A stretch of DNA of 64,000 bases, taken from the NCBI GenBank assembly GCA_017534745.1, contig JAFXVX010000018.1, positions 1 to 64,000 of the forward strand, in the 5' to 3' direction. The notes beneath the pieces are model-generated. The model made no database searches, was not told the DNA's origin, and worked only from the letters and a program-made list of their open reading frames with translations. The DNA is from Bacteroidales bacterium. GTDB lineage: Bacteria; Bacteroidota; Bacteroidia; Bacteroidales; UBA932. Positions within the stretch are counted from its first letter, which is position 1. Each line of letters starts with the position of its first letter. Both the position numbers and the translations under genes were made by a program. This document shows, piece after piece, positions 1 to 57,775 of the stretch.

Positions 1-35
1 CTTCTGTTTTCGGCCAGAAGGCCGAGCTCTCCGGC

Positions 36-827
36 ATGAATCTGTTCGTGCGTCTGAATGTTAATCGCGTGATGGCCGGAGAAAGTATGAACTTGAATGC
101 GCCAGAGTTTCTCGATTCCGTTCCTACCGCTTCCTATCGGCTGGTCGTTGTATCGCCGTCTATGATAATCTTCCAGGGCATCAAACATCAGTCCCTGCCG
201 AATAAGTTGGTCGTGAAGATGTCTTCGGCCATGAGCCCTGGCATCTCTAATGGCTGGAGCAAGACGGTGATCATCTCTCCCAACGCGGAGGATGACTGGG
301 GCGAAGCGGACCTAACTACGCTCTATACCAAGACTATTGGTGCAACGCCAGTGGTGGGGCAGAAGGTGTTCGTGGAAGTGTATTGGATGAACACGACTAC
401 CGGCGAGACGGGTCAGGAGATGCGGGATTCCGTTATCTGCTTGACGGACGAAGAAGCAGCCGCTTTGGTTGGTGGTTCCCGCGCACGTTACACTGAGGAA
501 GATATCAAGGAAGAAAGCTATGTGTCTGATTTTGACTTGGAGTACTCTACTGGCGGGCCGGCTGTAAATGTTGACATCATTAGCCAGGGAACACCGGGCG
601 TGTCCATGTCGGAAGTATTTTTGAAAGAACAGATTCCGGCCGACCGACTTGGAAAGATCTACGTTGTTAGTCGTTCCCTCCAAGAAGGGAAATATTATTT
701 CGGTCTGGTGGAAATGAATGTAAACAACACTTCCTATTACGGACCGTACATCAAAATCAATAACTACGCCGGCGGAATGTTCAAGCCCTGCGAGATTTTC
801 GGCCCCGGTATTATGCTCCCTCTTTAA
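36..827 (+). CDS. hypothetical protein; the reading frame stays open back to the window edge, so it may be 5'-truncated. First gene of the left-edge phage-like module
   Basis: 263-codon ORF with no in-frame stop back to position 3. Lower GC (about 50%) than the rest of the chromosome. No recognisable catalytic motif. Confidence 0.45.
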   Translation: MNLFVRLNVNRVMAGESMNLNAPEFLDSVPTASYRLVVVSPSMIIFQGIKHQSLPNKLVVKMSSAMSPGISNGWSKTVIISPNAEDDWGEADLTTLYTKTIGATPVVGQKVFVEVYWMNTTTGETGQEMRDSVICLTDEEAAALVGGSRARYTEEDIKEESYVSDFDLEYSTGGPAVNVDIISQGTPGVSMSEVFLKEQIPADRLGKIYVVSRSLQEGKYYFGLVEMNVNNTSYYGPYIKINNYAGGMFKPCEIFGPGIMLPL

Positions 828-839
828 TCGATTTGGACT

Positions 840-1964
840 ATGTTTAATGCAATAGGAAATAACTTTGGCGCCGGTGAGATTCGATTTAAGTCTTACCAGC
901 AACCTACTTACGTCATTCTGAATACTCGCTTCTTTATGGATCCGACTACTCCGGAGTATCAAGCTGCAGACGTACTGGAAATCACGGTGCCTAAGCTTTC
1001 TATAGACCGAAGCGCGAATAGTGTTGCGCTGATTGTATTCCGTGACAGGCGACAGAGTTATGGGTCTGCGGATTCTTATGATGCAGGTTCAGCGGCCCGT
1101 AGTTGGATCAAAGACGATCACACCATCTGTATTGAAAAGTTGGCTTGTATGGAAGGGAAAGGTAAACTGTGCGTATATATCTATTCGATGTATATCCAGC
1201 TGAATCAAGGTCTTCCCGCAGAACGTCACAGCAAGCTTGCCCTGAACGTGACGCCTTCTCCCATTTGCTGCGAGTTCTATAGAGATTCCTTTATTGTCGT
1301 GAAGGAAAAATGGGTATTCCTGTATATCGGGAAGGGAACAACGCCTTCTGGTGGTTCATATCAGCCCTGGGAGGGCGTGGTTGATAACCTTCCAACAGAT
1401 ATCCAGGCTATTGTCCCTTTCTATGGCGGCAACAACCAGTATAATAATAATTATACATCTATTTCCGAGGTAACACTGAAAGCCGGAAAGTATATCCATC
1501 CATATCGGACACCCTCTAACTCTGGAACTGGCATATTCGGCTATTTTGTCAGGGGGGATAATCAGGGAGAAGTAATCCCGGATATTCCAATGGCCGACGA
1601 TGTCACCCGGTGTCGTTTAATAATCAAGAATGAAGAGACGATGACTTCCTCATACGAGGCTGATTTTGTGATTGAGGGCTGTACTGGACCCATAAACGTT
1701 GGAGTTGTTGGGAAATTCGTTTCTCCAGGTGTTAACAATTATGCAGGTTATAATCTTAATGAGCAGTCGAAAAAGATTCCCGGTGGCAGTTTTAGTGTGG
1801 TATGTCGCACGAATGCTGGTCATAAGCTTGCCATCTATGATGCGTTTAGTTATTCTGAACTGAACAACTCCCAGAGAAATATCACCTGTCGCTGTTCGGC
1901 AGCCCGTTATGAGGAAGTAGAGGTTTTTGATACCAGTGTCTATACTTATAGTGGAACTAGATAA
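840..1964 (+). CDS. hypothetical protein, paralog A (N-terminal GNNFGxG domain with a long variable C-terminus)
   Basis: 374-aa ORF 13 nt after the previous gene. Its N-terminal ~70 aa (MFNAIGNNFGAG...AADVLEITVPKLSI) resemble the N-terminus of the next ORF (MLTIVGNNFGGN...QATVLEIKVDGLAI). Lower GC and a Gly/Asn-rich C-terminal part. Confidence 0.55.
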   Translation: MFNAIGNNFGAGEIRFKSYQQPTYVILNTRFFMDPTTPEYQAADVLEITVPKLSIDRSANSVALIVFRDRRQSYGSADSYDAGSAARSWIKDDHTICIEKLACMEGKGKLCVYIYSMYIQLNQGLPAERHSKLALNVTPSPICCEFYRDSFIVVKEKWVFLYIGKGTTPSGGSYQPWEGVVDNLPTDIQAIVPFYGGNNQYNNNYTSISEVTLKAGKYIHPYRTPSNSGTGIFGYFVRGDNQGEVIPDIPMADDVTRCRLIIKNEETMTSSYEADFVIEGCTGPINVGVVGKFVSPGVNNYAGYNLNEQSKKIPGGSFSVVCRTNAGHKLAIYDAFSYSELNNSQRNITCRCSAARYEEVEVFDTSVYTYSGTR

Positions 1965-1977
1965 AATGTAAGGTAAC

Positions 1978-2691
1978 ATGTTGACGATTGTTGGAAATAA
2001 CTTTGGAGGAAACTGCACCGGCCAGCAGCTGAAAGTGGTCCAGGATAAGTACCATGCAGTTGTAAATGGTTCCATTACCGTGGATACGAGCCAAGCCGCC
2101 TACAAGCAGGCTACTGTGCTGGAGATTAAAGTGGATGGACTGGCCATTAAGAATAGCGGGCCCGCTGCAGTATACGCGACCATGTTTTATGGCGGTATTC
2201 ATCGCATTACTGTTGTAAGGGCTTGGTTCGAGGATCAGGAAACGCTTCGCCTCGAGAAGGTCCTTGGCTGGCCGGAGAATTGCCAGTATCAGCTAACTTT
2301 CCAATGCCTGTTTATTCCTTTCGGTTTAGACTGCCTTGCCTATTACCAGAGAAAAACTGACGTTGCCCTGTCCGGAGCACCGGAGGGTTTCCTCATCTTC
2401 AACTCCAATGTGAAGTTGTTTGATGACTGGGCATTTTTTTTCATCACCTTCGAGAGATTTGCGACAGCTGAGCCGGAGACCCCGATTAACCTCACCCTGA
2501 CGGGCCTCACCGAAGACATCGAGCACGATTTCTTCCTGGTCTATAATGACCCGACCCTGGAGGAGTATGGTAGCGGCTATGTGGATCTGTCCCTGGTCGG
2601 GAACAGCCTTCTGATTGAAGATGGCCTTCCCGCACTGGCGAACGCAGCTGCCGGCCGGAAGTTCATCAAGGGAGCAGTAATATACGAATAG
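1978..2691 (+). CDS. hypothetical protein, paralog B (shared N-terminal domain, different C-terminus)
   Basis: 237-aa ORF whose N-terminal domain is paralogous to the 840-1964 product and whose C-terminal region is unrelated. Confidence 0.55.
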   Translation: MLTIVGNNFGGNCTGQQLKVVQDKYHAVVNGSITVDTSQAAYKQATVLEIKVDGLAIKNSGPAAVYATMFYGGIHRITVVRAWFEDQETLRLEKVLGWPENCQYQLTFQCLFIPFGLDCLAYYQRKTDVALSGAPEGFLIFNSNVKLFDDWAFFFITFERFATAEPETPINLTLTGLTEDIEHDFFLVYNDPTLEEYGSGYVDLSLVGNSLLIEDGLPALANAAAGRKFIKGAVIYE

Positions 2692-2694
2692 GAT

Positions 2695-2943
2695 ATGGCA
2701 CGTCAGGAACTCACAAAGCTTCAGGGCGCCATTGCCATCGCCAGCTTCTCTGCAGGAGTGCTGATTGCAATGGTGTGCCTGTTCTTCATCGAGCCCTTGG
2801 GCGAGATAGCCTCATCTGCCATCTCCATAGTGAGTGAGCTCCTGGTCCTGTGCGGTGCCATCCTGGGCGTAAAGGCCAGTTACGATACCAAGTTCCGGAA
2901 ATTTGAAAATGAACTTCGGCACAAGGCCGACAAACCTGAATAA
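2695..2943 (+). CDS. small two-TM membrane protein (holin-like topology)
   Basis: 82 aa with two hydrophobic helices (AIAIASFSAGVLIAMVCLFFI and ISIVSELLVLCGAILGV) and a charged C-terminus (KFRKFENELRHKADKPE). It starts 4 nt after the upstream gene. Confidence 0.45.
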   Translation: MARQELTKLQGAIAIASFSAGVLIAMVCLFFIEPLGEIASSAISIVSELLVLCGAILGVKASYDTKFRKFENELRHKADKPE

Positions 2944-2954
2944 GAACTTAACCT

Positions 2955-3428
2955 ATGAGATACGTTCTGCCACTGCTTTTCCTCGTGCTCGCTTCTGCCT
3001 GCAGTACTGTCCGCCAGCTTCCATCGACGGACAGTACCAAGGTGGAGGTCCGGACGGAGACGGTGTTCCAGAAGGATACTGTCTTTGTGGAGCTGCCGCT
3101 TGTTGTGGAGCGGGTCGCAGTCCTGGATACGGTCTCGCATCTGGAGAACGCCTATGCGGCTTCATCGGCCGTGGTTTCCGGCGGAGTCCTGAAGCACAGC
3201 CTGGAGACGAAGCCCGTGAAGATGCCGGCGGTTGTTGACAAAGAGATTGTGTATCGGGATTCCTTAATATATAGAGACCGGGTGCAGACCGTGACGGTTG
3301 AAGTGGAGCGCAAGTTGACCGGCTGGCAGCAGGCTAAGCTGAGGGTAGGGGGCTTCTGTTTCTTTGCTGTGATTTTGATTGGACTTTATTTCCTTATTAC
3401 TCAATTTATCAACCTTAAACTCTTCTGA
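2955..3428 (+). CDS. lipoprotein with a C-terminal transmembrane helix (unimolecular-spanin-like topology)
   Basis: 157 aa with an N-terminal lipoprotein signal (LLFLVLASAC-S) and a C-terminal hydrophobic helix (GGFCFFAVILIGLYFLITQFI). This topology matches u-spanins of phage lysis cassettes. Confidence 0.45.
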   Translation: MRYVLPLLFLVLASACSTVRQLPSTDSTKVEVRTETVFQKDTVFVELPLVVERVAVLDTVSHLENAYAASSAVVSGGVLKHSLETKPVKMPAVVDKEIVYRDSLIYRDRVQTVTVEVERKLTGWQQAKLRVGGFCFFAVILIGLYFLITQFINLKLF

Positions 3429-3430
3429 CT

Positions 3431-4123
3431 ATGAAGTACATTCCTTCCATCGCCTTCGAGGAGATGAGCGGCAGCGCCAAGGGCGTTACGGCCGCAAAGA
3501 TGAAGAACCGGAAGTACATCCGCAACCGCGGGTACGGCGGCAGCGTCCGCACTTCCGACCAGGCCAAGGTCAAGGGCATTTTCAAGCGCCTGACCACGAT
3601 GTGGAAAACGCTCACCAACGAGCAGATCCTCGCGTGGAACAAGCTTGCCCTGAGCCAGCAGGGCCGTTCTGTCCTGGGAACCGGCGCCAAGATCTCCGGC
3701 TCCAACCTGTTCACCCGCCTCAATTACTGGATCGTCGCTTGCGGCGGCCAGCCCGAGGTGACCCCTCCCACGCTCCTGGGCGTGGAGAACCCGTCCAGCG
3801 CCACCATCGTGTGCCAGGGCAATACCTTTACCTTCAAGCTGGACCAGGCTCTCGCTGATAACGGCGGCATCTTCCTGGTCATCGAAGCCACCGAAGGTCA
3901 GTCCAATGGCGTAAGCCGCGCCCACAGCAAGGCCGTTGCCATCAAGATGGTGGAAGAGCCCACCGCGGTCGCCATCGACATCCGTGCCGACTACGTGGCC
4001 AAGAACGGTGCTCCCAGCGCCGCAGCGCCGAAGATTTTCTTCCGCTACTACTACGTCAACTCCAGCACCGGCGAGAAGTCCGGCACCATGCTGGCGGAGT
4101 GCAAGTGGACTCCGGGGGCCTAA
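3431..4123 (+). CDS. hypothetical protein (GC3-rich)
   Basis: 230-aa ORF directly following with a 2-nt gap. Very high third-position GC, unlike ORFs 1-3. No motif recognised. It is followed by a terminator. Confidence 0.5.
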   Translation: MKYIPSIAFEEMSGSAKGVTAAKMKNRKYIRNRGYGGSVRTSDQAKVKGIFKRLTTMWKTLTNEQILAWNKLALSQQGRSVLGTGAKISGSNLFTRLNYWIVACGGQPEVTPPTLLGVENPSSATIVCQGNTFTFKLDQALADNGGIFLVIEATEGQSNGVSRAHSKAVAIKMVEEPTAVAIDIRADYVAKNGAPSAAAPKIFFRYYYVNSSTGEKSGTMLAECKWTPGA

Positions 4124-4175
4124 TCAAAGGCCATCCTCAATTCTTGCCCTTTTAACGGGCGAGGGGACAAAAAGA

Positions 4176-4210
4176 TTTCCTGCCTTCCTTTCGGGGGGCA
4201 GGATTTTTTT
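4176..4210 (+). terminator. rho-independent terminator (7-bp stem TCCTGCC/GGCAGGA followed by T7)
   Basis: The hairpin followed by TTTTTTT is seen directly in the sequence, downstream of the 3431-4123 ORF. Confidence 0.55.
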
Positions 4211-4307
4211 GTGTATTTCCAGACGTATGGCGTGGCGGGTTCCCGGATAGTTCACCGGTCGGACCCGCCCAAAAGCAATCAAAGTATAGGGGAGGATAGT
4301 AAAAGAA

Positions 4308-4353
4308 ATTACGCATAAATTCAGCAAGTTTTATGCGTAAATTTATGCGTAAG
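4308..4353. repeat. 13-bp inverted repeat ATTACGCATAAAT / TTTATGCGTAAAT followed by a direct copy TTATGCGTAAG; candidate protein-binding or att-associated site
   Basis: Seen directly in the sequence: inverted copies at 4308-4320 and 4330-4342 and a direct copy at 4343-4353, about 35 nt from the tRNA-Ala 3' end. Confidence 0.4.
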
Positions 4354-4386
4354 TGCCTTAAGTGACTGATTTTCAGTCTGTTCCGT

Positions 4387-4459
4387 GGAGCATAGGAGAA
4401 TCGAACTCCTGACCTTTTGAATGCCATTCAAACGCTCTACCAACTGAGCTAATACCCCG
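4387..4459 (-). tRNA. tRNA-Ala (anticodon GGC)
   Basis: Reverse complement GGGGTATTAGCTCAGTTGGTAGAGCGTTTGAATGGCATTCAAAAGGTCAGGAGTTCGATTCTCCTATGCTCCA. 7-bp acceptor stem with a G3:U70 pair (Ala identity element), GCTCAGTTGGTAGAGC D-arm, anticodon loop AT-GGC-AT, GGTTCGATTCC T-arm. CCA is not encoded. Confidence 0.85.
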
Positions 4460-4614
4460 TTTCCCTTGAATGGGATTGCAAAGGTAAGTCATTTTTTTTG
4501 TTTTGCAAATTTTTGTGTGAATTTTTTTGTTACAGTCATGCATAGCTATGCCTGAAAGGGCTATTTTCAGGTTTATCCGCGTACAATTTTTTTACATGGA
4601 TAAATCTTCATTTA

Positions 4615-5550
4615 TTGGGCGAAATATTTTGGGCTATGCAAACAAAAGGCGATTTTTTCGAGCGGGAGCGGGAGTGCGAACGCTTATTTGAGGCGGCAGG
4701 GCCGTTCTGGTTTTTTACGACAGAGGGGCTGGACCGGCTTTTATACAGTAGCCGGGAGGAGTTTATCGCCGGAACGAATATCCTTGCTATATCGGCGGCG
4801 AAATCCGGAGTGACTGTCATCAGCGACACACAGATGAGCAATCACCATCATGTGATGGCCAGGGGATCGTTGTCACAGGCCGGAGCATTCAGGGAAATAT
4901 TCCGGGATAAGAGCCGGAGATACCAGTTGGCTCTGGGTAACAAGTCGTTGAAGGACTGGGACATCCGGATAGACGCGACCGAAGATGTGAAGGCTTTCAG
5001 AAACCGTATCGTATATATCGACCGAAATGCCTACGTCGCCCGCCGGGACAGCACCCCGACTGGTTATCCGTGGGGATCCGGGCACCTGATGTTCAACGGC
5101 ACACTCTGGATGATGTCGGAAGGCTCTCCGTGGGGGACGCTCAGTATTGATAAACGGCGTTGCATATGCCGTTCACACGATATTGATCTGCCCTCCTCTT
5201 ACCGGGTGCTTGACGGGATGATTCTCCGGAGCAGTTTTATAGATTATCAGCAGACAGAATCCCTGTTCCACAGCGCAAATCAGTATTTTTCCCTCCTGTC
5301 CCGGCACGGAGAGTCCGACGTGGAAATCGCGCAAATGCTTGGCGAGGGGATTCAGCTTCCGAACGAGGAGGTGTTCCAGATCGTGGCGCAGTGGCACCGT
5401 GGACGGTCATTGAGGGAGCTTACGCCGGTTGAAAAGGCCCTCGCGGCGAAGCGGATGAAACTGCGCCTCTCCTCCTCCAACAAGCAAATTACCCAGGTGC
5501 TGCAACTCCCCCCGGAGGAGGTTGAGCGCCTGTTCCCGGTGCCGCGGTAG
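4615..5550 (+). mobile_element. IS200/RAYT-like Y1 (HUH) tyrosine transposase domain protein with a ~150-aa C-terminal extension
   Basis: 311-aa ORF. Motifs align with E. coli RayT/TnpA(REP): GPFWFFTTEG vs GTWFFTVNL (N-terminal beta-strand), NHHHVMA vs EHMHCIW (HUH region), IVYIDRNAYVARR...GYPWGSG vs YIYINPVKHGWV...DWPFSTF (catalytic Tyr helix and YPW motif). Spacing between motifs is about 55 aa. Confidence 0.6.
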
Positions 5551-5559
5551 GGGATGGGG

Positions 5560-5925
5560 CCGGCAGGAGAGCTGCCGCCGGAAAAAGGGGCGGAAATCCG
5601 TCCGCAGGGTGTGTAGGCAGGGCTTACTGCCGGGAAAAGTAGCGGAAATCCGTCCGCAGGGTGTGCTGACCGGGCCTGCTGCCGGGAAAAGTAGCGGAAA
5701 TCCGTCCGCAGGGTGTGCTGGCGAGGCTTACCGCCGGAAAAAGGGGCGGAAATCCGTCCGCAGGGTGTGTAGGCAGGGCTTACTGCCGGGAAAAGGTGCC
5801 GAAAATCCGTCCGTGGGGTGTGCTGGCGAGGCTTACCGCCGGAAAAAGGGGCGGAAATCCGTCCGCAGGGGGTGTAGGCAGGGCTTACTGCCGGGAAAAG
5901 TGCCGAAAATCCGTCTGCGCGCCGG
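5560..5925. repeat. tandem array of about 6.5 copies of a ~59-bp unit (consensus near CTGCCGGGAAAAGTAGCGGAAATCCGTCCGCAGGGTGTG[CTGGCGAGG/TAGGCAGGG]CTTA); REP/BIME-like
   Basis: Seen directly in the sequence. Units contain short palindromes (GCGGAaatccgTCCGC, GGCAGggcttaCTGCC). The array lies between convergent gene ends (the transposase-like gene and nth). Confidence 0.8.
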
Positions 5926-5987
5926 GGGGTGGCAGGGATGGAGGGAGGCGGAAGGTGCAGAAGGGCTGCGGAAGGTGCGGGGCGCGC

Positions 5988-6632
5988 CTATTTCCCCGTG
6001 TGCTCGCGGCACCAGGGGGCGAGGGGGCAGGTGTCGCAGGAGGGTTTGCGGGCGGTGCAGACGTAGCGGCCGTGGAGGATGAGCCAGTGGTGGGCGATTG
6101 CCCTCTGGTGGACCGGGATATTGGCTTCCAGGTCCTTCTCGACGGCTTCGACGGTCTTGCCATTGGAAAGGCCGAGGCGGCGGGAGACGCGGAAGACATG
6201 GGTATCGACCGCGATTACGGGCTCATTATATATAATGGATGCAACGACGTTGGCGGTCTTGCGGCCGACGCCGGGGAGGGTCATGAGGGAGGGGACGTCG
6301 CCGGGGACCTCGCCTCCGAACTCGTCGACCAGCCGGCCGGCCATGGCGATGAGGTGCTCCGTCTTGCTGCGCGGGTAGGTCACGCTGCGGACCTTTTCGA
6401 AAACATCGTCGAAAGAGGCTGCCGCAAGGGCCTTCGGGGTGGGGAAGGCTTCGAACAGGGCCGGCGTTACCATGTTGACCCTTTTGTCGGTGCATTGGGC
6501 CGACAGCATCACTGCAACGAGCAGCTGGAAGGGGGAGTCGAAGTGAAGTTCGGACTCCACATCCGGCCGGTTATCGGAAAACCAGCCGATAATTGCTGAA
6601 TATCTTTGTTTAAGTGTCATATTTGTCGGCAA
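5988..6632 (-). CDS. nth: endonuclease III (DNA glycosylase/AP lyase)
   Basis: 214 aa. HhH-GPD motifs (LPGVGRKTANVV) and a C-terminal 4Cys Fe-S cluster (CTARKPSCDTCPLAPWC). Confidence 0.9.
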   Translation of the reverse strand: MPTNMTLKQRYSAIIGWFSDNRPDVESELHFDSPFQLLVAVMLSAQCTDKRVNMVTPALFEAFPTPKALAAASFDDVFEKVRSVTYPRSKTEHLIAMAGRLVDEFGGEVPGDVPSLMTLPGVGRKTANVVASIIYNEPVIAVDTHVFRVSRRLGLSNGKTVEAVEKDLEANIPVHQRAIAHHWLILHGRYVCTARKPSCDTCPLAPWCREHTGK

Positions 6633-6687: not shown

Positions 6688-9645
6688 ATGCGAATAACAT
6701 TGATACTGGCCCTCTCGGCCGCGCTCCTTTCCGGAGTGGACGCGGGGGGTGCCACCCAGAGAAAAGACTTCGACAGGGCCATGGAGCTGTACCGAGCCGG
6801 GCTCTATTCGGAAGCGTTCCTCTCCTTTGGAAAGCTCGACGGGATCGTGGCGGAGGGCTATTCCGTGCTGTCCGCCGTCAAGGCGGATGCGGACTGCTGC
6901 TTCGCCCTCGCCGAAGAATACACCCGTTCCTATCCGGAGTCCCCGGTAGTGCCGAAAATCCGCTATGCCTGCGGCCTGAAGCGGTTCGACGAGGGCAATT
7001 TCGAGGAAGCGGCCTACTGGCTTGCCAGGGTTTCGGCGACCGAACTTGCCAAGAGGGACCGTTCGGAGTACATGTACAAGAAGGCCTACAGCGAGTTCGG
7101 CAAGGGCAATTATTCCTATGCCGAGGAGCTGCTTCTCAAGTCCGAGCGCCTGCCGTATTCCGATTACACGGCCCCTTCCCGCTATTCGCTGGGCTACATT
7201 TATTACTCCGGGGAGAACTTCAAGGAGGCCTTTAGGTGGTTTAGTGAATCCTCCAAAGATCCAAGATTTTACGAAATCTCCAATTACTATATGCTCGAGT
7301 GTCGTTTCATGATGAGGGACTATGACTACGTCATCGAAAACGGCGAGAGCATGTTCGACAAAGTCCCCGAGGACAGGAAGCCTCACCTGAGCCGTATCAT
7401 CTCGGAGTCTTACCTCGTAAAAGGAGATGCGTCGAAGGCCAAGGAATACTACGAAAAGACCTCCGGCAGCCGCCTCGCCCCGAAGGGCAGGACTGATTAT
7501 TTCTATTCCGGCTCGCTGCTGTATTCGGTCGGCGATTACGCCGGCGCGGTGGAGAATTTCTCGCTCATGGGCGAGAGGCGCGATTCGCTCGGCCAGATAG
7601 CCTCCTACAGGATGGGAGACAGCTACATCCGCCTGCGCAACAAGGTCGCTGCGATGGATGCCTTCCGCGAAGCTTCGCGGGAGGACTGGGATCCGGCCAT
7701 CCGCGAGGATGCAGCCTTCAATGCCGCCAAGCTCGCATTTGACCTTGGCGGCGACACCGCTCCGTTCTCCGACTATATCCGCCGCTACGGATCCGAGGGC
7801 AAGGGCGACCGAATCTATTCATATATGGCTATGGCGGCCCTTGTCAACCACGACTACGAGGGCGCGGTCGCGGCCTACGACAAGGTCGAGGTCCTCGACG
7901 ACAGGATGAAGGGCAACTACATGAAAGCCTATTACTTACGGGCAGCGCAGCTGATGGGCAACGGCTCATGGCGCAGCGCCGTTCCCTGCCTGAAGGCTGC
8001 GGCCTATTACGCCCCGAGACAGGATCCTTTCAACCAGATCTCACGCTATTACCAGGCCGAGGCCCTCTTCCGCGACGGCAACTACGCCGAGGCGCGGCAG
8101 ATTCTCCTTGACCTTTACAATATCTCCGCCCTCGACGGGACGGCGGAGGGGAACCTGATCCCTTACGGAATCGCCTGGTGCTATTTCAAGGAAGCCGACG
8201 GCAAGAACGCTATCCGTTGGTTCAACAGCTACCTTGAGACCCCTTCTCCTGTCTATGGCGCTGACGCTGAGACGAGGATCGCCGACTGCTACTTCATGGC
8301 CAAGGAATACCGCACGGCCGCGACGGCCTACGAGCGCGTCCTGAAGGACTATCCGGATTCCGACGACCTCTATCCCGCCCTCCGCGGGGGAGTGGCCTGC
8401 GGCCTTCTTGGAGACAAGGCCGGCAAGATCCGCTTCCTGGAGTCGGCCAAGGAGGCGCCGATGACGGCGGAGCTCTGGCCGGACGCGATGTATGAGCTCG
8501 GAAGGGCTTACGTCGATGCCGGAGACCGTGATTCCGCCGTTAAGACTTTCAACACCCTGAGGGCCGGAAGCACCGAGAAGGAATTCACCGCCAAAGCCCT
8601 CATCGAGCTCGGTATGCTTGAGAACAACGAAGGTCACACGGATGCCGCCCTTGCCCACTACAAGGAGGTCGTGTCGATGCTTCCGGGCAGTTCCCAGGCC
8701 GACGACGCCCTCCTTGCGATAGAGTCCATCTACAAGACCACCGGTGCTCCGGACGAGTACCTCGCCTACGTCAACAGCCTCGGTTCATCCTCCGGAAGGA
8801 GCGAGGCCGAGAAGGAGGCCGTCTATTTCGCTTCGGCCGAGCAGCTGTTCCTCGCAGGCAATTACAGCAAGGCCCTCACGGCCTTCGAGAAGTATCCATC
8901 CCTGTATCCTGGGGGGAAGAATCTCGCCAAGGCGGACTACTACAAGGCCGAGTGCCTGAGGTGCACCGGCAGGAAGGAGCAGGCGTGCGACGCTTACCGC
9001 AAGGCCGTTTCCGAAGGCTTGGAGCCTTCCTTCCTGGAGCCCGCGCTCCTTGCCCTCGGCAACCTGTCGTTCTCCCTTGAGAACTACTCCGATGCATTCT
9101 CGGCCTTCCAGACCCTCCGCGAAAAGGCGTCCCTCAAGGATAACCGCGAGGCCGCCGCGGCCGGGATGATGCGTTCCGCTTTCAAGGGAAGGAATTATTC
9201 CTCCGCGATATCCTCGGCCGACCTTGTCCTCGCGTTCTCATCCGGAGATCTCGCGAGGGAGGCGGACTGGATCAAAGCGAAGTCCTATCTCGCTACAAGC
9301 CAGAGAGACAAGGCCTTCCGCCTTCTCGAGACTCTCAGCGCCTACCCTTCGACAAGCGAAGGCGCAGAGGCGACCTATCTGATTATCCAGGATCTCTACG
9401 ACAGGGGAGAGTTCTCGTCCGTCAGCGAAAAAGTCTATGACTTCTCCTCGAAGGCCGGAGGCGAGAATTACTTCCTCGCCAAGGCCTTCATAGTCCTCGG
9501 AGACACGTTTATGGAGCAGGGCAACACCGCCCAGGCCCGTGCAACCTATGAGAGCATCGCTTCCGGTTACACTCCGGATCCCGGCCGTGAGGACGACGTC
9601 CTCGACCAGGTCAGGATGCGTCTCCGCAAAATCGACAGGCAATGA
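6688..9645 (+). CDS. large secreted tetratricopeptide-repeat protein
   Basis: 985 aa with an N-terminal signal peptide. Repeated Ala/Tyr-rich TPR-like helices throughout (e.g. ELYRAGLYSEAFLSF, AYYLRAAQLMGNGSW). Confidence 0.75.
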   Translation: MRITLILALSAALLSGVDAGGATQRKDFDRAMELYRAGLYSEAFLSFGKLDGIVAEGYSVLSAVKADADCCFALAEEYTRSYPESPVVPKIRYACGLKRFDEGNFEEAAYWLARVSATELAKRDRSEYMYKKAYSEFGKGNYSYAEELLLKSERLPYSDYTAPSRYSLGYIYYSGENFKEAFRWFSESSKDPRFYEISNYYMLECRFMMRDYDYVIENGESMFDKVPEDRKPHLSRIISESYLVKGDASKAKEYYEKTSGSRLAPKGRTDYFYSGSLLYSVGDYAGAVENFSLMGERRDSLGQIASYRMGDSYIRLRNKVAAMDAFREASREDWDPAIREDAAFNAAKLAFDLGGDTAPFSDYIRRYGSEGKGDRIYSYMAMAALVNHDYEGAVAAYDKVEVLDDRMKGNYMKAYYLRAAQLMGNGSWRSAVPCLKAAAYYAPRQDPFNQISRYYQAEALFRDGNYAEARQILLDLYNISALDGTAEGNLIPYGIAWCYFKEADGKNAIRWFNSYLETPSPVYGADAETRIADCYFMAKEYRTAATAYERVLKDYPDSDDLYPALRGGVACGLLGDKAGKIRFLESAKEAPMTAELWPDAMYELGRAYVDAGDRDSAVKTFNTLRAGSTEKEFTAKALIELGMLENNEGHTDAALAHYKEVVSMLPGSSQADDALLAIESIYKTTGAPDEYLAYVNSLGSSSGRSEAEKEAVYFASAEQLFLAGNYSKALTAFEKYPSLYPGGKNLAKADYYKAECLRCTGRKEQACDAYRKAVSEGLEPSFLEPALLALGNLSFSLENYSDAFSAFQTLREKASLKDNREAAAAGMMRSAFKGRNYSSAISSADLVLAFSSGDLAREADWIKAKSYLATSQRDKAFRLLETLSAYPSTSEGAEATYLIIQDLYDRGEFSSVSEKVYDFSSKAGGENYFLAKAFIVLGDTFMEQGNTAQARATYESIASGYTPDPGREDDVLDQVRMRLRKIDRQ

Positions 9646-11306
9646 AAAAGATAGCAGTCATACTGGCCTTGGCGGCCGTCGCAGCGGCGGCGCAGGCCCA
9701 GAACCTCAACCCGACGGTTGAAGTGACCAATATCTACGAAGGCTCGGTGACCCGTGCCGACAAGCCGGACGCCCCCGTGACCGTCCCTGATTCGGTGACT
9801 GTGTTCAACCTCGATTTCGACTACTCGACCTTCGAGCGGCCGTATATGGGCGCCTACGATTTCTCTCCTTATCTCATAGGCCTGAAGCCTTCCCCGAGCG
9901 CATCAAATCCTGGCCGGCTGTATGTCAGCGCCGGCGCAGGGTACAGGCTCCGCCCTGAGGCTGAGATAGTCTGGACCCCATGCCGTAAGGGAGACTTCCA
10001 TCCGGGGCTATATGGCTCTCTCCACTCTTTCTTCGGGCCGTATAACAATCTTGTGGAACGGGAGGGCCGGGTTGTCTCGGACGGCGGCTATTTCAATGGC
10101 TTCGATGCAGCGGTCAAGGCCGGGACTAACGGCGCCTGGTTCCTTCCCAGGTCCATTTTCTCATACGATGTCCACTACGGTGGCATTTTCACGAGGGATA
10201 CCCTGAAGCCCGTCCGCAGCGTCCACATGGCGGACGGAACTGTCAGGTTTCGCAGCGCCGATGACAGTGGAAGCCGTTTCTTCTACGATGCGGCCTTCTC
10301 CTACCGTTTCGCGAAGGAATTCAACGGCAGGAATGCCCCCATGCGGGAGCATCGCGCATTTTTCGACAGTTCGTTCGGCTACGACCTCAACGACATTCAC
10401 CGCTTCTCGGTGGATGCCGACGTGATGGTCTCCGACATCGGCGGCATGTACGACGGCTATGGCGGCTACGTCCGTTTTATCCCCAAATACAGGCTGCAAA
10501 AGGGGCGCTGGAGGCTGGATGCCGGCCTTGCGCTTTCCATCACGATGGGATCCGGCAGAAGGGAAGCGGACCCCGTGCTGTATGGCAGCCGGGGCTACCA
10601 GGTCGTCTATCCCGACGTTTTCATAGGTTTTGAGGCCATCAGGGAGAGGATGGTTATCTATGCCAGAGTGAACGGCGGCGAAAAAGTCAACTCCTTCAGT
10701 GACGTCGTTCTCTCTAACCACTTCTTCTCGAAGGACTATGCCCACAGCGGCGCCCTTCTCGACTTCTCGGCCGACAGGATCAACGCTTCGATAGGCCTTC
10801 GCGGCAATATCAGTGCCCGTTTCCGCTACGACCTTTCCGGCGGCTATGCATTGATAAAGAACGACATGCTGTATTCGACCGGCGGACCTTCCGTGGTCTA
10901 TCAGGACCACAATCTCTGGTATGCAACCCTTCTTGCCGGCTGGGATTCGGTACACTGCAGGGCTGACGGCGGTTTCTACGTCCGCAAGACCAGTCTGGAC
11001 GACTGGAATGCGGACGCATTCGAGCCCGGGATTTTCTCCGGTTATTTCAAGGCTGAATACATCTACAAGTCCCGCCTTGCGGTCGGCCTGGACTGCTCAT
11101 TTTCCACCGCGATGCACTCATACGGAGTGGAGAAGCTGACCATCCCCGGATGGTTCGACCTCGGCCTTATCGCCGACTTTGCCGTGACCCGCAAATTCGG
11201 TCTCTGGGTGCGCAGCGGCAACCTCATCGGGATGACCATCCAGAGGGTTCCGTACTACTCTGAAAAGGGTCGCTGGGTAACCGCCGGAGTGAAGTTCAAT
11301 TTGTAG
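9642..11306 (+). CDS. putative outer-membrane beta-barrel protein (unknown family)
   Basis: 554 aa with a signal peptide (MKKIAVILALAAVAAAAQA). Rich in alternating aromatic/Gly beta-strand-like segments. Start overlaps the TPR gene stop by 4 nt (translational coupling). Confidence 0.55.
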   Translation: MKKIAVILALAAVAAAAQAQNLNPTVEVTNIYEGSVTRADKPDAPVTVPDSVTVFNLDFDYSTFERPYMGAYDFSPYLIGLKPSPSASNPGRLYVSAGAGYRLRPEAEIVWTPCRKGDFHPGLYGSLHSFFGPYNNLVEREGRVVSDGGYFNGFDAAVKAGTNGAWFLPRSIFSYDVHYGGIFTRDTLKPVRSVHMADGTVRFRSADDSGSRFFYDAAFSYRFAKEFNGRNAPMREHRAFFDSSFGYDLNDIHRFSVDADVMVSDIGGMYDGYGGYVRFIPKYRLQKGRWRLDAGLALSITMGSGRREADPVLYGSRGYQVVYPDVFIGFEAIRERMVIYARVNGGEKVNSFSDVVLSNHFFSKDYAHSGALLDFSADRINASIGLRGNISARFRYDLSGGYALIKNDMLYSTGGPSVVYQDHNLWYATLLAGWDSVHCRADGGFYVRKTSLDDWNADAFEPGIFSGYFKAEYIYKSRLAVGLDCSFSTAMHSYGVEKLTIPGWFDLGLIADFAVTRKFGLWVRSGNLIGMTIQRVPYYSEKGRWVTAGVKFNL

Positions 11307-53948: not shown

Positions 53949-54878
53949 TTATATATCTTCATACAGCTTAGCGGCTTTTTTGTGTTCATCGGCGACGGCG
54001 GAGCGGAGGGAGGAGGGGGAGAGGACCTCGATGCGGGGGCCGCGGCGGCAGAGTTCCATAATGAAATCCTCGTTGGGGATGAGGAAGATGCGGAAAATGG
54101 AACTGCCGTCGGGAAGGGTCTCTTCCAGCTCCTGGGTCGGGTGGATGGGCAGGTCCCTGAGATAGCGCGTCTCCTTCGGGGAGGCCTTGATGCGGATAAT
54201 CACGGGCTTTTCGCCCTCGTCCGGGAGATAGACTCCGTAGGATACCCTGAAAAGGCCCTCGGCATCGAAATCCTTCGGGAGGGTAAAACTCTTTCCGGTC
54301 TCCCGCAGGGAGCGGATGCGGTCGAGGCCATAGACGCGGAGAGCGTTTCTTTCCAGGCAGAAACCTATTAAGTACCAGCGCCTTGCCACCTCCTTTAGGG
54401 CATAGGGGCGGACAGTGAGAGGTTCCGCTCCGGAGGCGGTGTATTTCTCATAGCCGATGGCTATCTCGCGGCCGTCCAGCATCGCTTTCATAATGGTGGT
54501 CAGATGTCTGTGGCCGGAAGGGACTTCATCGACGGAAACCCTTCCGGAGAGCCTTTCCTTGCCGATGGAAAGGACGCTGCCGACGGTGAAGGTGTCCACC
54601 AGCCAGCGGGTCGTGGAGGTCGCGTCCAGCGAATCGTCCCCGCCGGGAATATAGTACCTGCGGGTGCGCCTGTCGCAGAGAATCTCCACCCCGAAAGCAT
54701 CCAGGATGGCGCTGCGGTGGTTGTTGAACGACCGCCTCGGGTATGCGGCGTCGTATCTATCCTCATACCTCTCCTGCAACTCCTCAAGCGACAACCCTCC
54801 CGGCCCTGCGTTGAGCAGGGTTTCCAGAAGCCATATGTATTTGTCTATCAGTTCACCAACCATCGGTATGAACGCCAA
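53949..54878 (-). CDS. WYL-domain transcriptional regulator (wHTH, WYL and C-terminal extension; BrxR/CapW-like architecture)
   Basis: 309 aa with an N-terminal winged-HTH region and a central ARRWYLIGFC WYL signature. Host-like GC (about 62%). Confidence 0.8.
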   Translation of the reverse strand: MAFIPMVGELIDKYIWLLETLLNAGPGGLSLEELQERYEDRYDAAYPRRSFNNHRSAILDAFGVEILCDRRTRRYYIPGGDDSLDATSTTRWLVDTFTVGSVLSIGKERLSGRVSVDEVPSGHRHLTTIMKAMLDGREIAIGYEKYTASGAEPLTVRPYALKEVARRWYLIGFCLERNALRVYGLDRIRSLRETGKSFTLPKDFDAEGLFRVSYGVYLPDEGEKPVIIRIKASPKETRYLRDLPIHPTQELEETLPDGSSIFRIFLIPNEDFIMELCRRGPRIEVLSPSSLRSAVADEHKKAAKLYEDI

Positions 54879-54904
54879 CTGACAAATTTACAAAAAGAAT
54901 TAGT

Positions 54905-55735
54905 TCACTCACTCAATAACTTATGTAAATTAGTCTCTTCCAGAACATTTATCTGTTCAATTGCCATTTTGTTGAGTCTTGTGGCTCTGGCGGGCTGAGA
55001 TAGCCCAAGTTTAATTAATTCCGCATTCATGCTTTCCAGATTTACCAGCACAATCAGTTGACTAAGCGTTGCGCCATCTCTGATATTCCCTTTTGCATTA
55101 GGGTTTTCATCCCGCCACATTCTGGCGGTCTTGCCGAAAAGTGCAACATTCAAGACATCAGCCTCGTTTGCGTAGATAAAGGACTGTGCACGTAAAGATA
55201 TGTCCTCTGGGATAAGGTGTACCTTTATTGCGTCAGTATGGATTCGATAGTTTATCTTTGTGAGTTCGCGACTTAGATTCCAGTTTAAGGAAAGGCGACT
55301 ATTTTCATCAGTTTTAAGTCTCTGGTAGTCTTTGACGATATAAAGTTTGAACTCTGGGGAAATCCACGATGCAAATTCAAAGGCAATATCATTGTGAGCG
55401 AAAGTGGAGGCATAGCGCCCTTGTTTTGTAATAATACCTTTTGCATTAGTCTGGTCCACCCATCTTTTGGGCGTAAGAACAAAGCTGTTCAATCCAGCCT
55501 CTTTCTCAATTGCCTCGAATTCGAGGTAATTGAATTCAGAATTATGGAGATGTTCCCATAAACCCAGAAAACGCACTGTGTTGCGCGTACGCATCCAGTT
55601 CTGAATCACGTATCCTGGATTCTCCGGTGTCTTATACCTGGCTATATCTGTCAGCGAGATAAAATCTCCCGATATCCCTCCATATTGGACTTCAACTTGA
55701 AATCCGTTTGCGTTTATATTCGATTTGCCAGCCAT
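54905..55735 (-). CDS. KilA-N domain DNA-binding protein (phage Bro/KilA-like)
   Basis: 276 aa. The N-terminal region contains the KilA-N hallmark FAHNDIAFEFASWISPEFKLYIV (compare HPDLAIAFAMWISPEF of phage P1 KilA and APSES proteins). Low GC (about 40%). Confidence 0.65.
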   Translation of the reverse strand: MAGKSNINANGFQVEVQYGGISGDFISLTDIARYKTPENPGYVIQNWMRTRNTVRFLGLWEHLHNSEFNYLEFEAIEKEAGLNSFVLTPKRWVDQTNAKGIITKQGRYASTFAHNDIAFEFASWISPEFKLYIVKDYQRLKTDENSRLSLNWNLSRELTKINYRIHTDAIKVHLIPEDISLRAQSFIYANEADVLNVALFGKTARMWRDENPNAKGNIRDGATLSQLIVLVNLESMNAELIKLGLSQPARATRLNKMAIEQINVLEETNLHKLLSE

Positions 55736-55906
55736 AATTATATGATCTTTTTCATTACCGCGAATATACCCCGTTTTGAACTTTCCTGCAAGATTCTTTT
55801 TGCTTTAAAATGAAAAAAAATTACATTTGTTCTGCCGTGAAATCGGTCCACAACTTTGTTAATATATGAATGCCGTGTGGAGCGACGGAAGGCTAATCAG
55901 GAATTT

Positions 55907-56479
55907 ATGGAGGAAAAAACGAATGTCCGATTCCTTACGGACTCAACAGATGGGAAAGACGGCGCTAAGGAGGTCATTATGGATTATGTGATCTCATGGA
56001 CTCTTCGTCGTGCCCAAAATATTTGCGCTGGAGAGAAACCAATTCTCTATAGGTATTGCAGGAAATTTCTGGGAAAACTTATTGGGCAGGAAATTTCAGA
56101 CTTTGATTTCGTAGAAGTGGAGACCTGGAAGCAGGAGTCAAGGATAGATCTTTGGGTTTGGGTTAAAGTAAATAATGTTGAACACGATATCCTTATCGAA
56201 GATAAGTATTATTCGCCTGTTCACAACGACCAGCTAAATAGATATAGAGAAGTATTTGATGACTGGATTGGGGAGAATCGGGCAGACTCAATTCGCCACT
56301 ACTGGTTATTGACGTGTTATGAACAGGGGGTGACTGATATATATGATATCGCTGTCAGGAATAGTGGTTTCAAGATATTGTTCTGGGACCAGATGCTTGA
56401 TGCGATGGGGTGTAATATTGAAGAACCTGTCAAGAGTGAAAGTGACATTTTTAATGAGTTCTGGCTGGAGAACTGGTGA
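55907..56479 (+). CDS. PD-(D/E)xK-motif putative nuclease
   Basis: Start taken at the first ATG (MEEKTN...). The ORF track uses an upstream TTG. 190 aa. Core motif ...ESRIDLWVWVKVNNVEHDILIEDKYY... gives a D-(x12)-E-D-K arrangement on predicted beta-strands, as in restriction-endonuclease-fold nucleases. Low GC. Divergent from the KilA-N gene. Confidence 0.5.
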   Translation: MEEKTNVRFLTDSTDGKDGAKEVIMDYVISWTLRRAQNICAGEKPILYRYCRKFLGKLIGQEISDFDFVEVETWKQESRIDLWVWVKVNNVEHDILIEDKYYSPVHNDQLNRYREVFDDWIGENRADSIRHYWLLTCYEQGVTDIYDIAVRNSGFKILFWDQMLDAMGCNIEEPVKSESDIFNEFWLENW

Positions 56480-56483
56480 TATT

Positions 56484-57065
56484 ATGGATAAGGAGACAGT
56501 CGGAATAATAGCGTTGATTGCGATAACGATAATTGCGTACATCGTTGCTCAGATTTTTTCTCGGAAGACAGAGTGTGTGATTCTGTATAAGTGGTATGAT
56601 TTTGCCTGCCTTTTATGGATTGCGGTCAGTCCTTTGTTTATCGGGTTAGGGAATAAGATTTTCACAGACGGAGAGATGACGTCTAAGACCGCCCTTGTCA
56701 ATCGCATTATTTTTATGATTCCAATAGCCATTTTGGTTTTGACATCAATTTTTTCCAATTTGGGGCATGGTTGGATGAGCCTGCTTTATATTTTCGTTTC
56801 CATTATGGCTAAGATTCCGTTTATAATCGGATCTTGGATAATAGCTTTTGCCTTATTTCTGACCCTTTATGCCGGCGCTTCCGCAAAGACTGATGCAAGA
56901 TATCATGACGGTACACGAAGGAATGAAAAAACAAATCGCAGAATGCGTGCAATCGCTATTTTCTTCGCAATTTTCAATCCTCTTCTGTTTGATTTGGTAA
57001 AGCCTCGTACCAATCGTGGCAAGTTAAGCGACTTTGTATATAATAGAGCAACTCGTGACCTATAA
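56484..57065 (+). CDS. 4-5-TM integral membrane protein, unknown function
   Basis: Start at MDKETVGIIALIAITIIAYIV, 4 nt after the stop of the upstream gene, giving 193 aa. Four to five hydrophobic helices and a basic C-terminal tail. Low GC. Confidence 0.55.
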   Translation: MDKETVGIIALIAITIIAYIVAQIFSRKTECVILYKWYDFACLLWIAVSPLFIGLGNKIFTDGEMTSKTALVNRIIFMIPIAILVLTSIFSNLGHGWMSLLYIFVSIMAKIPFIIGSWIIAFALFLTLYAGASAKTDARYHDGTRRNEKTNRRMRAIAIFFAIFNPLLFDLVKPRTNRGKLSDFVYNRATRDL

Positions 57066-57095
57066 GTTTTTGATATTAAACATATTTACTGGATA

Positions 57096-57773
57096 ATGAA
57101 AATTTTTGGTTTCCTTGAGACAATGGATTATAACGACGAAGTCTCCATCATTCACAGAATAGGTGGTATAATCCGTAACAAAAAAATGTCGCAATTGTCT
57201 ACTAACCGGATCGTTGTCAAAGAAATACATATGGTCCGAGTTGATTATTCACGGAAGTATTATGGTGGCAGGGAGGATCTTGAATTCACAGAAGTATGGC
57301 CATCTAAATATGGATGCATAGATATGTGGCAAGAAGAGGTTTTCGATGATAAGATATTTGAAGATGTCATAGTGGAACTTGACAAACGAGGAAGGAGAAA
57401 AACTGATAGGATTTCCAACTTGTCAGATATCTTAAAACCATTCCTTGATGCCTCAGAGACACATAAGGAGTGTAAATATTTCTTGAGTGAAATAGATGCC
57501 GAAATTGATCCGGAAATTGGCGATAATATACAGTCAATGTTTGTCCGGGTCTTTAAAAAGGCGGCAAAAGTAGTCAGCTATAGTATTGGCTTAAGGACTT
57601 ATGAATTATGCTTAACGCAGGCGCAAGATGGCTTAGTGTTTATTTTTGAGAAAGTCCCCGGGCTATTCAGTGAAAAACGTCTTCTTGAAAGCGATAGCCT
57701 GACACATCCGATGAAAAATCTTTCCGGAGAGCAATTAGCAGAAATAAGGAAAACTCTGCGCCAGTCGAATTAG
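57096..57773 (+). CDS. hypothetical acidic cytoplasmic protein
   Basis: 225-aa ORF, low GC, no recognisable motif. Last gene of the island. Its stop lies inside a GAATTAG 7-mer that is repeated at the other island boundary. Confidence 0.5.
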   Translation: MKIFGFLETMDYNDEVSIIHRIGGIIRNKKMSQLSTNRIVVKEIHMVRVDYSRKYYGGREDLEFTEVWPSKYGCIDMWQEEVFDDKIFEDVIVELDKRGRRKTDRISNLSDILKPFLDASETHKECKYFLSEIDAEIDPEIGDNIQSMFVRVFKKAAKVVSYSIGLRTYELCLTQAQDGLVFIFEKVPGLFSEKRLLESDSLTHPMKNLSGEQLAEIRKTLRQSN

Positions 57774-57775
57774 AT

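Follow-up and report, generated by a model that had tools for sequence, protein, structure and literature searches.

The stretch of DNA analysed here (the window) comprises positions 1 to 64,000, read on the forward strand, of contig JAFXVX010000018.1 in assembly GCA_017534745.1 of a Bacteroidales bacterium (GTDB lineage UBA932), and the subject of this study is one of its genes, which encodes a putative HUH protein of the Y1 transposase type, together with the tandem repeat array next to it (Table 1). An uninterrupted open reading frame (ORF) runs on the plus strand from a TTG at 4615 through the stop codon at 5548-5550, and an initial annotation made from these letters without database searches took it for a 311-aa protein of the IS200/RAYT type (RAYT, transposase with a catalytic tyrosine associated with repetitive extragenic palindromes, REPs). 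The ATG at 4636 is the likelier start, since most homologues are 304-305 aa long and begin at that position, and all residue numbers given here count from this ATG. The array starts 21 nt past the stop codon and lies between the HUH gene and the convergent gene for endonuclease III (nth, 5988-6632, minus strand), and a tRNA-Ala(GGC) gene (4385-4458, minus strand) is found 177 bp upstream of the ATG.

Table 1. Features of the HUH gene and its flanks, in window coordinates
Feature	Position	Strand	Remarks
Inverted repeat TTTATCC-N19-GGATAAA	4572..4604	not assigned	32-64 nt upstream of the ATG; candidate operator/promoter-associated palindrome
Y1 HUH protein gene, 304 aa	4636..5550	+	ORF; 62 close homologues; alignment start at the ATG; AlphaFold2 model with predicted local distance difference test (pLDDT) score 87; alternative start TTG 4615 would give 311 aa
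W25-F-F-T28, first HUH beta-strand	4708..4719	+	Strand E24-29 of the model; E. coli RAYT has the same WFFT in its N-terminal strand region
HUH motif H70-H71-H72, with metal-binding H70 and H72	4843..4851	+	Invariant at H70 and H72; aligned to RAYT H59-M-H61 and to the HUH motif of ISDra2 TnpA
Y127-I-D-R-N131, catalytic-helix motif	5014..5028	+	Y127 presumed nucleophile; N131 at +4 (third metal ligand); helix 118-135
Y144-P-W-G-S-G, after the catalytic helix	5065..5082	+	P141, Y144 and W146 nearly invariant; resembles the RAYT W-x-x-S-(S/T) tail motif
Family-specific region, residues ~158-242	5107..5361	+	Appears to pack against the HUH domain; no significant match to a known domain
Helical, helix-turn-helix (HTH)-like module, residues ~243-299	5362..5532	+	Candidate domain for binding double-stranded DNA (dsDNA); helices 243-253, 264-277, 282-289 and 293-299
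Tandem array, seven 52-bp units head to tail, in two variants that alternate (104-bp super-period)	5571..5923	+	Tandem Repeats Finder (TRF); covariance model

We conclude that the N-terminal ~160 residues are an HUH domain like that of RAYT, in which the catalytic set is intact. Among 56 aligned representatives with 19-48% identity to the window protein, H70, H72, Y127 and N131 are the only invariant columns; the middle residue of the HUH motif varies (H, M, F or L), and H70-x-H72 lies on strand 71-76 of the model. When aligned by hhalign, these four residues fall on H59, H61, Y115 and N119 of E. coli RAYT (E 0.029 and 0.0053; 4er8 sequence verified), with N-H-H-H set against E-H59-M-H61 and Y127-I-D-R-N131-A against Y115-I-Y-I-N119-P, while the correspondence of WFFT was drawn by eye and by fold superposition rather than by residue-level alignment (RAYT sequence verified). 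The AlphaFold model, built from 25 homologues, has the alpha/beta fold of TnpA. Its best Foldseek match in the PDB is 4er8_A, the E. coli RAYT bound to a REP hairpin (E 5.9e-4), and the TnpA proteins of IS608, ISDra2 and IS200 come next in the fold searches. Among PDB sequences the family profile has five matches (E 0.047-0.57), each of them an IS200/IS605 transposase that aligns with it at the HUH motif. Furthermore, one relative (P0075) scores above the gathering threshold of the Pfam Y1_Tnp model (24.3 vs 23 bits), sub-threshold Y1_Tnp similarity was seen in five of nine other representatives scanned, and two of 25 close relatives reach E 0.018. The four motifs named by the initial annotation (WFFT, HHH, YIDRNAY and YPWGSG) are all present, at residues 25-28, 70-72 (preceded by Asn), from 127 on and from 144 on, and their conservation goes well beyond chance; the catalytic Tyr and His residues keep their places on proper alignment; and the proposed IS200/RAYT-type Y1 protein of about twice the canonical length agrees with the fold searches, the RAYT alignment and the invariant tetrad.

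The repeat array directly downstream of the gene was also noted by the initial annotation, with a period of 59 bp where TRF gives 52 bp (5577-5915, 6.5 copies). A hairpin covariance model recognises each of the seven units with 32-40 bits and finds no other match in the 64-kb window below E 0.9, and a 24-mer core occurs five times in the array against zero expected. The hairpin of the window unit is weakened (CTGC-CGG / 16-nt loop GAAAAGTGGCGGAAAT / CCG-tcc-GCAG), the stem being degraded in the window and in its nearest relatives, though the covariance model still recognises their units. An Rfam search of 4100-6100 returned the tRNA only, so the repeat does not belong to any RNA family described to date. 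Two other readings of the array were rejected: CRISPR-like, as the units share homology from end to end and contain no unique spacers, and coding, as the ORFs at 5522-6082 and 5715-6599 derive from the repeats and overlap nth, which is on the other strand. A G-rich stretch (5924-5987) with the short repeat GCGGAAGGT x3.4 at 5948-5980 separates the array from the nth stop codon. This stretch is not conserved in the homologous locus L008 (1434-1560), which comes from the window's own species and encodes a protein of 98% identity, so the distal border of the array is variable within the species.

Units of 50-52 bp lie beside the gene in nearly all of the 26 related loci, from 98% identity down to relatives found by profile only (L025, L028, L149, L150 and L151), which bears out the link between gene and neighbouring repeat that had been proposed for the window. 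TRF detected arrays with this period directly adjoining the gene, before it, after it or at both ends, in L001/L002, L004-L006, L008, L010, L012, L015-L021 and L024, and two or three such units could be seen by eye in the loci missed by TRF. The period is conserved but the unit sequence is not and instead follows the lineage of the protein. Every unit has a hairpin whose stem, GC-rich and 6-11 bp long, is lineage-specific (CGGGCAGG, GGGAACG, CTGCGGA, GGACACC, GTGAGCAAAA, GCCATCCCTGA and others), and a loop of 12-16 nt of the type AAAA-NGGCN-GAAA is found in the lineages closest to the window. In an alignment of 17 hairpin sequences 83% of cells are paired, a percentage inflated by the hand-picking of units that show hairpins, and six of eight pairs have changed on both sides. 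The stem covariation is 0.333, compared with 0.181 in shuffles (none of 500 reach the observed value), and slid controls pair at 27-44%; the compensatory stem changes between lineages are real.

In one distant member (L151, 2317-3000 and 3865-4115) a different and larger hairpin (TATCCAGG ... GCCCTGCAGGGC ... CCCTGGATA) is spaced at ~100 bp and is joined by a second inverted repeat (GGAAGTTATCC ... GGATAACTTCC), so the repeat architecture is not uniform across the whole family. We also found contigs that end inside 51-bp arrays (L002 1-168, L010 1-161 and L019 1-206), and for many homologues the only source is a contig of 1-2 kb with little on it besides the gene, the median contig of the collection being ~1 kb. 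In metagenome-assembled genomes (MAGs) of rumen Bacteroidales, assembly apparently breaks again and again because of these arrays.

Because the catalytic residues are invariant, RAYT is the closest structure and lineage-specific hairpins lie beside the gene, we favour, with moderate confidence, the reading that the protein is a domesticated, single-copy and catalytically competent RAYT-like nuclease/ligase of single-stranded DNA (ssDNA) that acts on its own flanking hairpin arrays. Its most likely substrates would be the hairpins of the ~51-bp units flanking the gene. In such a mechanism, the units would become single-stranded during replication or transcription and the N-terminal HUH domain would bind the hairpin; Y127 would then cleave nearby and form a 5'-phosphotyrosine link, with the metal held by H70, H72 and N131, and the strands would be rejoined. 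Cleavage at equivalent sites of neighbouring units followed by rejoining would lead to the loss or gain of whole units, which would explain the head-to-tail register, the fixed period and the variable copy number. The HTH-like module at the C-terminus may add dsDNA binding, either to the arrays or to the palindrome upstream of the gene.

Several points weigh against this reading. The window protein itself has no Pfam match at E<=10, Y1_Tnp (PF01797) included, an outcome that the initial annotation had itself named as reason to give up the assignment; it has nothing usable in NCBIfam (one meaningless match), PHROGs or PADLOC; and phmmer and profile searches of PDB sequences gave marginal matches only, the sequence-only links to TnpA lying at E 0.005-0.05. 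Despite the failed profile search, we keep the protein among the Y1 HUH proteins because of the fold match, the invariant tetrad, the RAYT alignment and the links through the family profile and P0075. As for the repeats, the window units as ssDNA fold no better than shuffled sequences (z +0.3 to +0.8) with a bulged stem, the window array occupies one side of the gene only (downstream), the hairpin alignment was hand-picked as said above, no cleavage site could be identified, and contact of the protein with the repeats is something that we infer. The copy number within the species (6.5 units in the window vs 2.8 in L008) is weak evidence, since short-read assemblies collapse repeats, and replication slippage alone is able to change the copy number of tandem repeats. 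Finally, a scan of one genome per GTDB species gave 17 loci, each from a different rumen Bacteroidales MAG, and this count comes from incomplete MAGs and a single peptide pattern.

Whether the repeats are local or dispersed was addressed by running the hairpin covariance model on the window together with 22 loci (412 kb in all, rather than whole genomes). The density of units was 3.65 per kb within 0-300 bp of the gene, 0.33 per kb at 0.3-1 kb, 0.14 per kb at 1-2 kb, 0.017 per kb at 2-5 kb and 0 per kb beyond 5 kb, where 185 kb were searched, so it drops ~200-fold within 2-5 kb of the gene. The repeats therefore look like local arrays around the gene, not like REP-like elements scattered at one per few kb. 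A scan of metagenomes with a 17-nt degenerate core returned 120 single and evidently chance matches from unrelated environments, the pattern being too short to inform on dispersal.

These data bear on the possibility that the protein is a classical RAYT whose REP-like elements are dispersed genome-wide in high copy, the arrays beside the gene being only the local part (the REPtron), which we regard as unlikely. The best structural match is a RAYT bound to a REP, and RAYT genes are typically flanked by their REPs (PMC6006769), as the gene here is by its own hairpin repeats, downstream only in the window. In addition, secondary arrays lie 0.6-4.8 kb away from the gene, past unrelated genes (L002 1-168, inverted; L018 ~5351-5441; L024 ~6732-6824; L007 10376-11157), and several contigs end in arrays. 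Such contig breaks are, however, expected from tandem arrays alone. No further unit was found in the other 58 kb of the window or in 185 kb of flanking sequence at distances above 5 kb, TRF found no other array of 40-60-bp period in the window, and the units form head-to-tail 51-bp arrays instead of the REP pairs in alternating orientation that make up bacterial interspersed mosaic elements (BIMEs). Thus, of the single gene copy with many cognate repeats that the initial annotation had expected of a RAYT, the single copy was found (17 of 17 MAGs), whereas the repeats showed no dispersal in the window and flanks searched.

A bolder form of our interpretation, which we put forward only tentatively, is that the family represents a hitherto undescribed, Bacteroidales-wide class of domesticated HUH enzymes that, rather than spreading REPs, surrounds its own gene with a private tandem array of 51-nt hairpin units, which it builds and maintains, for instance, via unit-length ssDNA circles that are excised and re-inserted, and that the array has a host function read through the C-terminal domain. 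If this were true, the host function could be, for example, tunable copy-number switching, a barrier to replication or transcription, or transcript stabilisation.

The C-terminal half of the protein consists of two parts. The first (residues ~158-242) probably packs against the HUH domain, as judged from models: residues 160-210 have a pLDDT of 96-97 in the full-length model and of ~50 when modelled without the N-terminal domain, and when the C-terminal 147 residues were modelled alone their first 80 were poorly predicted. For the second part, an HTH-like fold is a reasonable guess. The long C-terminal extension described by the initial annotation is there, and its HTH-like character is reflected in sub-threshold matches only: Sigma70_r4_2 with E 0.0013 in one relative (P0066), HTH_23 and Sigma70_r4_2 in members, with HTH_23 reaching E 0.01 in just two of 25, a winged HTH similarity to PagR (E 0.23-0.5), and DeoR, ParB and KorA. 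Foldseek with the C-terminal model returned mostly HTH domains, all at E>0.5, and no Pfam match at threshold to Bac_DnaA_C, HTH_23 or HTH_28 was found in the window protein. Upstream of the gene, a TTATCC-N(13-19)-GGATAA palindrome occurs at -73 to -35 relative to the start in the window, L008, L002, L012 and L016; three more loci (L018, L149 and L151) have the right half, CGGATAA(G). This palindrome is a candidate operator.

Alternatively, the protein might be a DNA-binding regulator or architectural protein for which the arrays and the palindrome are dsDNA sites of the HTH-like module and cleavage is not its function. Both the conserved palindrome and the sub-threshold similarity of the C-terminus to sigma-70 region 4 and HTH domains would fit such a role, as would the period of 50-52 bp, which is close to five helical turns and would place the sites on one face of the helix, and the frequent position of the arrays between the gene and its likely promoter region. 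We consider this improbable all the same. The only invariant residues of the family are the four catalytic ones, which is hard to explain without catalysis, the covarying stems point to a folded single strand rather than to a duplex motif, and the HTH assignment has no statistical support.

A full HMMER scan of 1.84 billion representatives yielded 1,714 family members at E<=1e-3, nearly all of them full-length proteins of ~300-320 aa. The 62 close homologues all come from Bacteroidales metagenomes or MAGs, and all are unnamed or 'hypothetical' with no precomputed Pfam domain. Five members (P0064, 486 aa; P0087, 403 aa; P0126, 397 aa; P0162, 444 aa; P0166, 392 aa) carry N-terminal extensions of 90-185 residues in front of a full-length match, which could be fusions or mis-called starts. 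The order tRNA-Ala / gene / nth / tetratricopeptide repeat (TPR) / gyrB is kept at 79% identity, and remoter members are found in other contexts, always housekeeping ones (parAB and priA, groES/EL, dnaJ-grpE, polA). Synteny tracks protein identity, and each of the 17 incomplete MAGs, scanned with one peptide pattern, has a single locus. No relative was found in plasmid, phage or IMG/VR collections, and no tnpB was found near the gene among the window ORFs. Because of the single locus per MAG, the kept synteny, the housekeeping contexts, the lack of tnpB and the absence from mobile collections, the chromosomal gene is probably vertically inherited and domesticated, and not part of an active insertion sequence (IS), in line with what the initial annotation had proposed. 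The same annotation had seen neither IS hairpins nor tnpB; the latter is indeed absent from the surroundings of the gene, whereas hairpins are present in the repeat units, weak as they are in the window.

Somewhat less probable again than the classical RAYT or the regulator is a transposase of a still-mobile IS200/IS605-like element, with the hairpin arrays as its ends and its single copy due to chance. Such an element would account for hairpin units on both sides of the gene in many loci, for the mutually inverted orientation of the two sides in L150, L016 and L010/L011, and for the different genomic locations in distant lineages. An active IS is recognised by near-identical copies, variable insertion sites and presence on mobile replicons, and what we found was one locus in each of the 17 MAGs, synteny kept at 79-98% identity, and no copies in plasmid, phage or viral collections. 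Arrays of several units, direct or inverted depending on the lineage and often direct, flank the gene instead of distinct left and right ends; no element boundaries could be defined, and in the window the array is one-sided. That the arrays are unrelated minisatellites lying next to the gene by coincidence is very improbable and strongly disfavoured: the weak hairpins of the window units and the location of the window array where two genes converge and junk repeats are commonly found would suit it, but the same 50-52-bp period is found beside the gene in nearly all 26 loci with a sequence that follows the protein lineage, and the density decays ~200-fold with distance.

How, then, does this domesticated RAYT-like protein with its own arrays compare with known systems? 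E. coli RAYT, or TnpA(REP) (YafM, PDB 4ER8), has 165 aa compared with 304 aa here, the difference being ~145 extra C-terminal residues, and has YIxxNP where the window protein has YIDRNA and no Pfam Y1_Tnp match. Unlike the REPs and BIMEs of E. coli, the repeats here are head-to-tail 50-52-bp arrays with large A-rich loops that are concentrated within ~2 kb of the gene in the sequence searched, and no GTAG/CGTC tag was identified in them. With the TnpA proteins of IS200/IS605 elements (IS608, ISDra2, IS200) the family shares the HUH/Y1 fold and hairpin DNA flanking the gene, and these proteins are the only PDB sequence matches of its profile. It differs from them in being twice as long, in having Asn rather than Gln at the +4 position, in lacking tnpB, multiple copies and any sign of mobility, and in being flanked by arrays instead of unique left and right ends.

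Quentin et al. (2018) describe a class 2 of TnpA(Y1), the RAYTs, by the motifs NHxH and YIxxNP and an SS tail motif (PMC6006769). The family has this class 2 flavour (NH[HMFL]H, Y-x-x-x-N, W-G-S), with Ala in place of Pro. Subclass 2.1 ('TIRYT') has an HTH or DnaA_C tail, no REPs and terminal inverted repeats, and subclass 2.3 has about 325 aa and likewise no REPs (PMC6006769). Both resemble the family in a class-2-like NHxH, in their low copy number and in a large, conserved addition at the C-terminus with possible DNA binding. They were, however, collected by Y1_Tnp profiles, come mostly from Proteobacteria and reportedly lack REPs, whereas the present family belongs to Bacteroidales, escapes the profile and has hairpin arrays at its flanks; its C-terminus, unlike that of subclass 2.1, matches no Bac_DnaA_C, HTH_23 or HTH_28 model at threshold. 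Subclass 2.6 TnpA(REP) (Bertels group 5) is from the same phylum, the Bacteroidetes, with a median of 179 aa, a YIH[QN]NP motif and flanking 'atypical secondary structures' (PMC6006769); it is detectable with Y1_Tnp, and tandem 51-bp arrays have not been described for it. RAYT/REPtron-like is thus our working description, yet the family departs from the strict definition in profile match, in size (304 aa against ~150-200 aa), in the tyrosine motif (Y-I-D-R-N-A against Y-[IV]-x-x-N-P) and in the lack of dispersed repeats.

The tRNA gene next to the HUH gene, to which the initial annotation had drawn attention, is real in the window and confined to close relatives rather than a feature of the family. 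A tRNA adjoins the gene only in the window, L008 and L002 (tRNA-Ala) and in L009 (tRNA-Arg), and most lineages have no tRNA within 10 kb, so its proximity is occasional and not tied to one tRNA; in L009 a tRNA-Arg(TCT) (9699-9773) lies 228 bp upstream of the gene, and in L012 a tRNA-Thr(CGT) (7995-8069) lies 1.9 kb upstream. Integration linked to a tRNA was therefore rejected as a property of the family. On the other side of the tRNA-Ala, window positions 1-4384 hold five same-strand ORFs (36-827, 840-1964, 1978-2691, 2955-3428 and 3431-4123) without a Pfam or PHROGs match. The GC content is 0.47 in the first 2 kb, lower than elsewhere, the block stops at the 3' end of the tRNA-Ala, and the same-species contig L008 departs from the window exactly at the end of the tRNA-Ala. 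This block resembles an island that varies between strains or an element that has integrated at tRNA-Ala. At its putative edge, just past the tRNA-Ala 3' end, inverted repeats (AAATTACGCATAAA / TTTATGCGTAAATT) and a direct repeat (TTTATGCGTAAA x1.9) at 4302-4359 could be the remnant of an attachment site or a terminator. Far from the HUH gene, the GC content dips to 0.49 and then to 0.42 at 54000-58000, compared with ~0.57 elsewhere, with a strong positive GC skew, and this region may be another foreign segment.

Among domesticated prokaryotic transposases, RAYT/REP is the textbook example; such systems are known chiefly from Proteobacteria and are identified by means of the Y1_Tnp profile. 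The family found here is a large one of gut and rumen Bacteroidales that was missed by the profile libraries, keeps the catalytic tetrad and is tied to a different repeat architecture. Neither the family nor its arrays were found described in the literature searched. Its coupling, across the family, to hairpin arrays of fixed period is the main new result, more than the protein alone. Should the enzyme not act on these arrays, the present results would still provide a useful annotation for a widespread 'hypothetical protein'. If it does act on them, the recurrent assembly breaks in Bacteroidales MAGs would have an explanation, the family would offer new sequence-specific HUH domains for tools of ssDNA-protein conjugation, and it would serve as a compact, testable model of the way in which HUH enzymes make tandem repeats and set their size.

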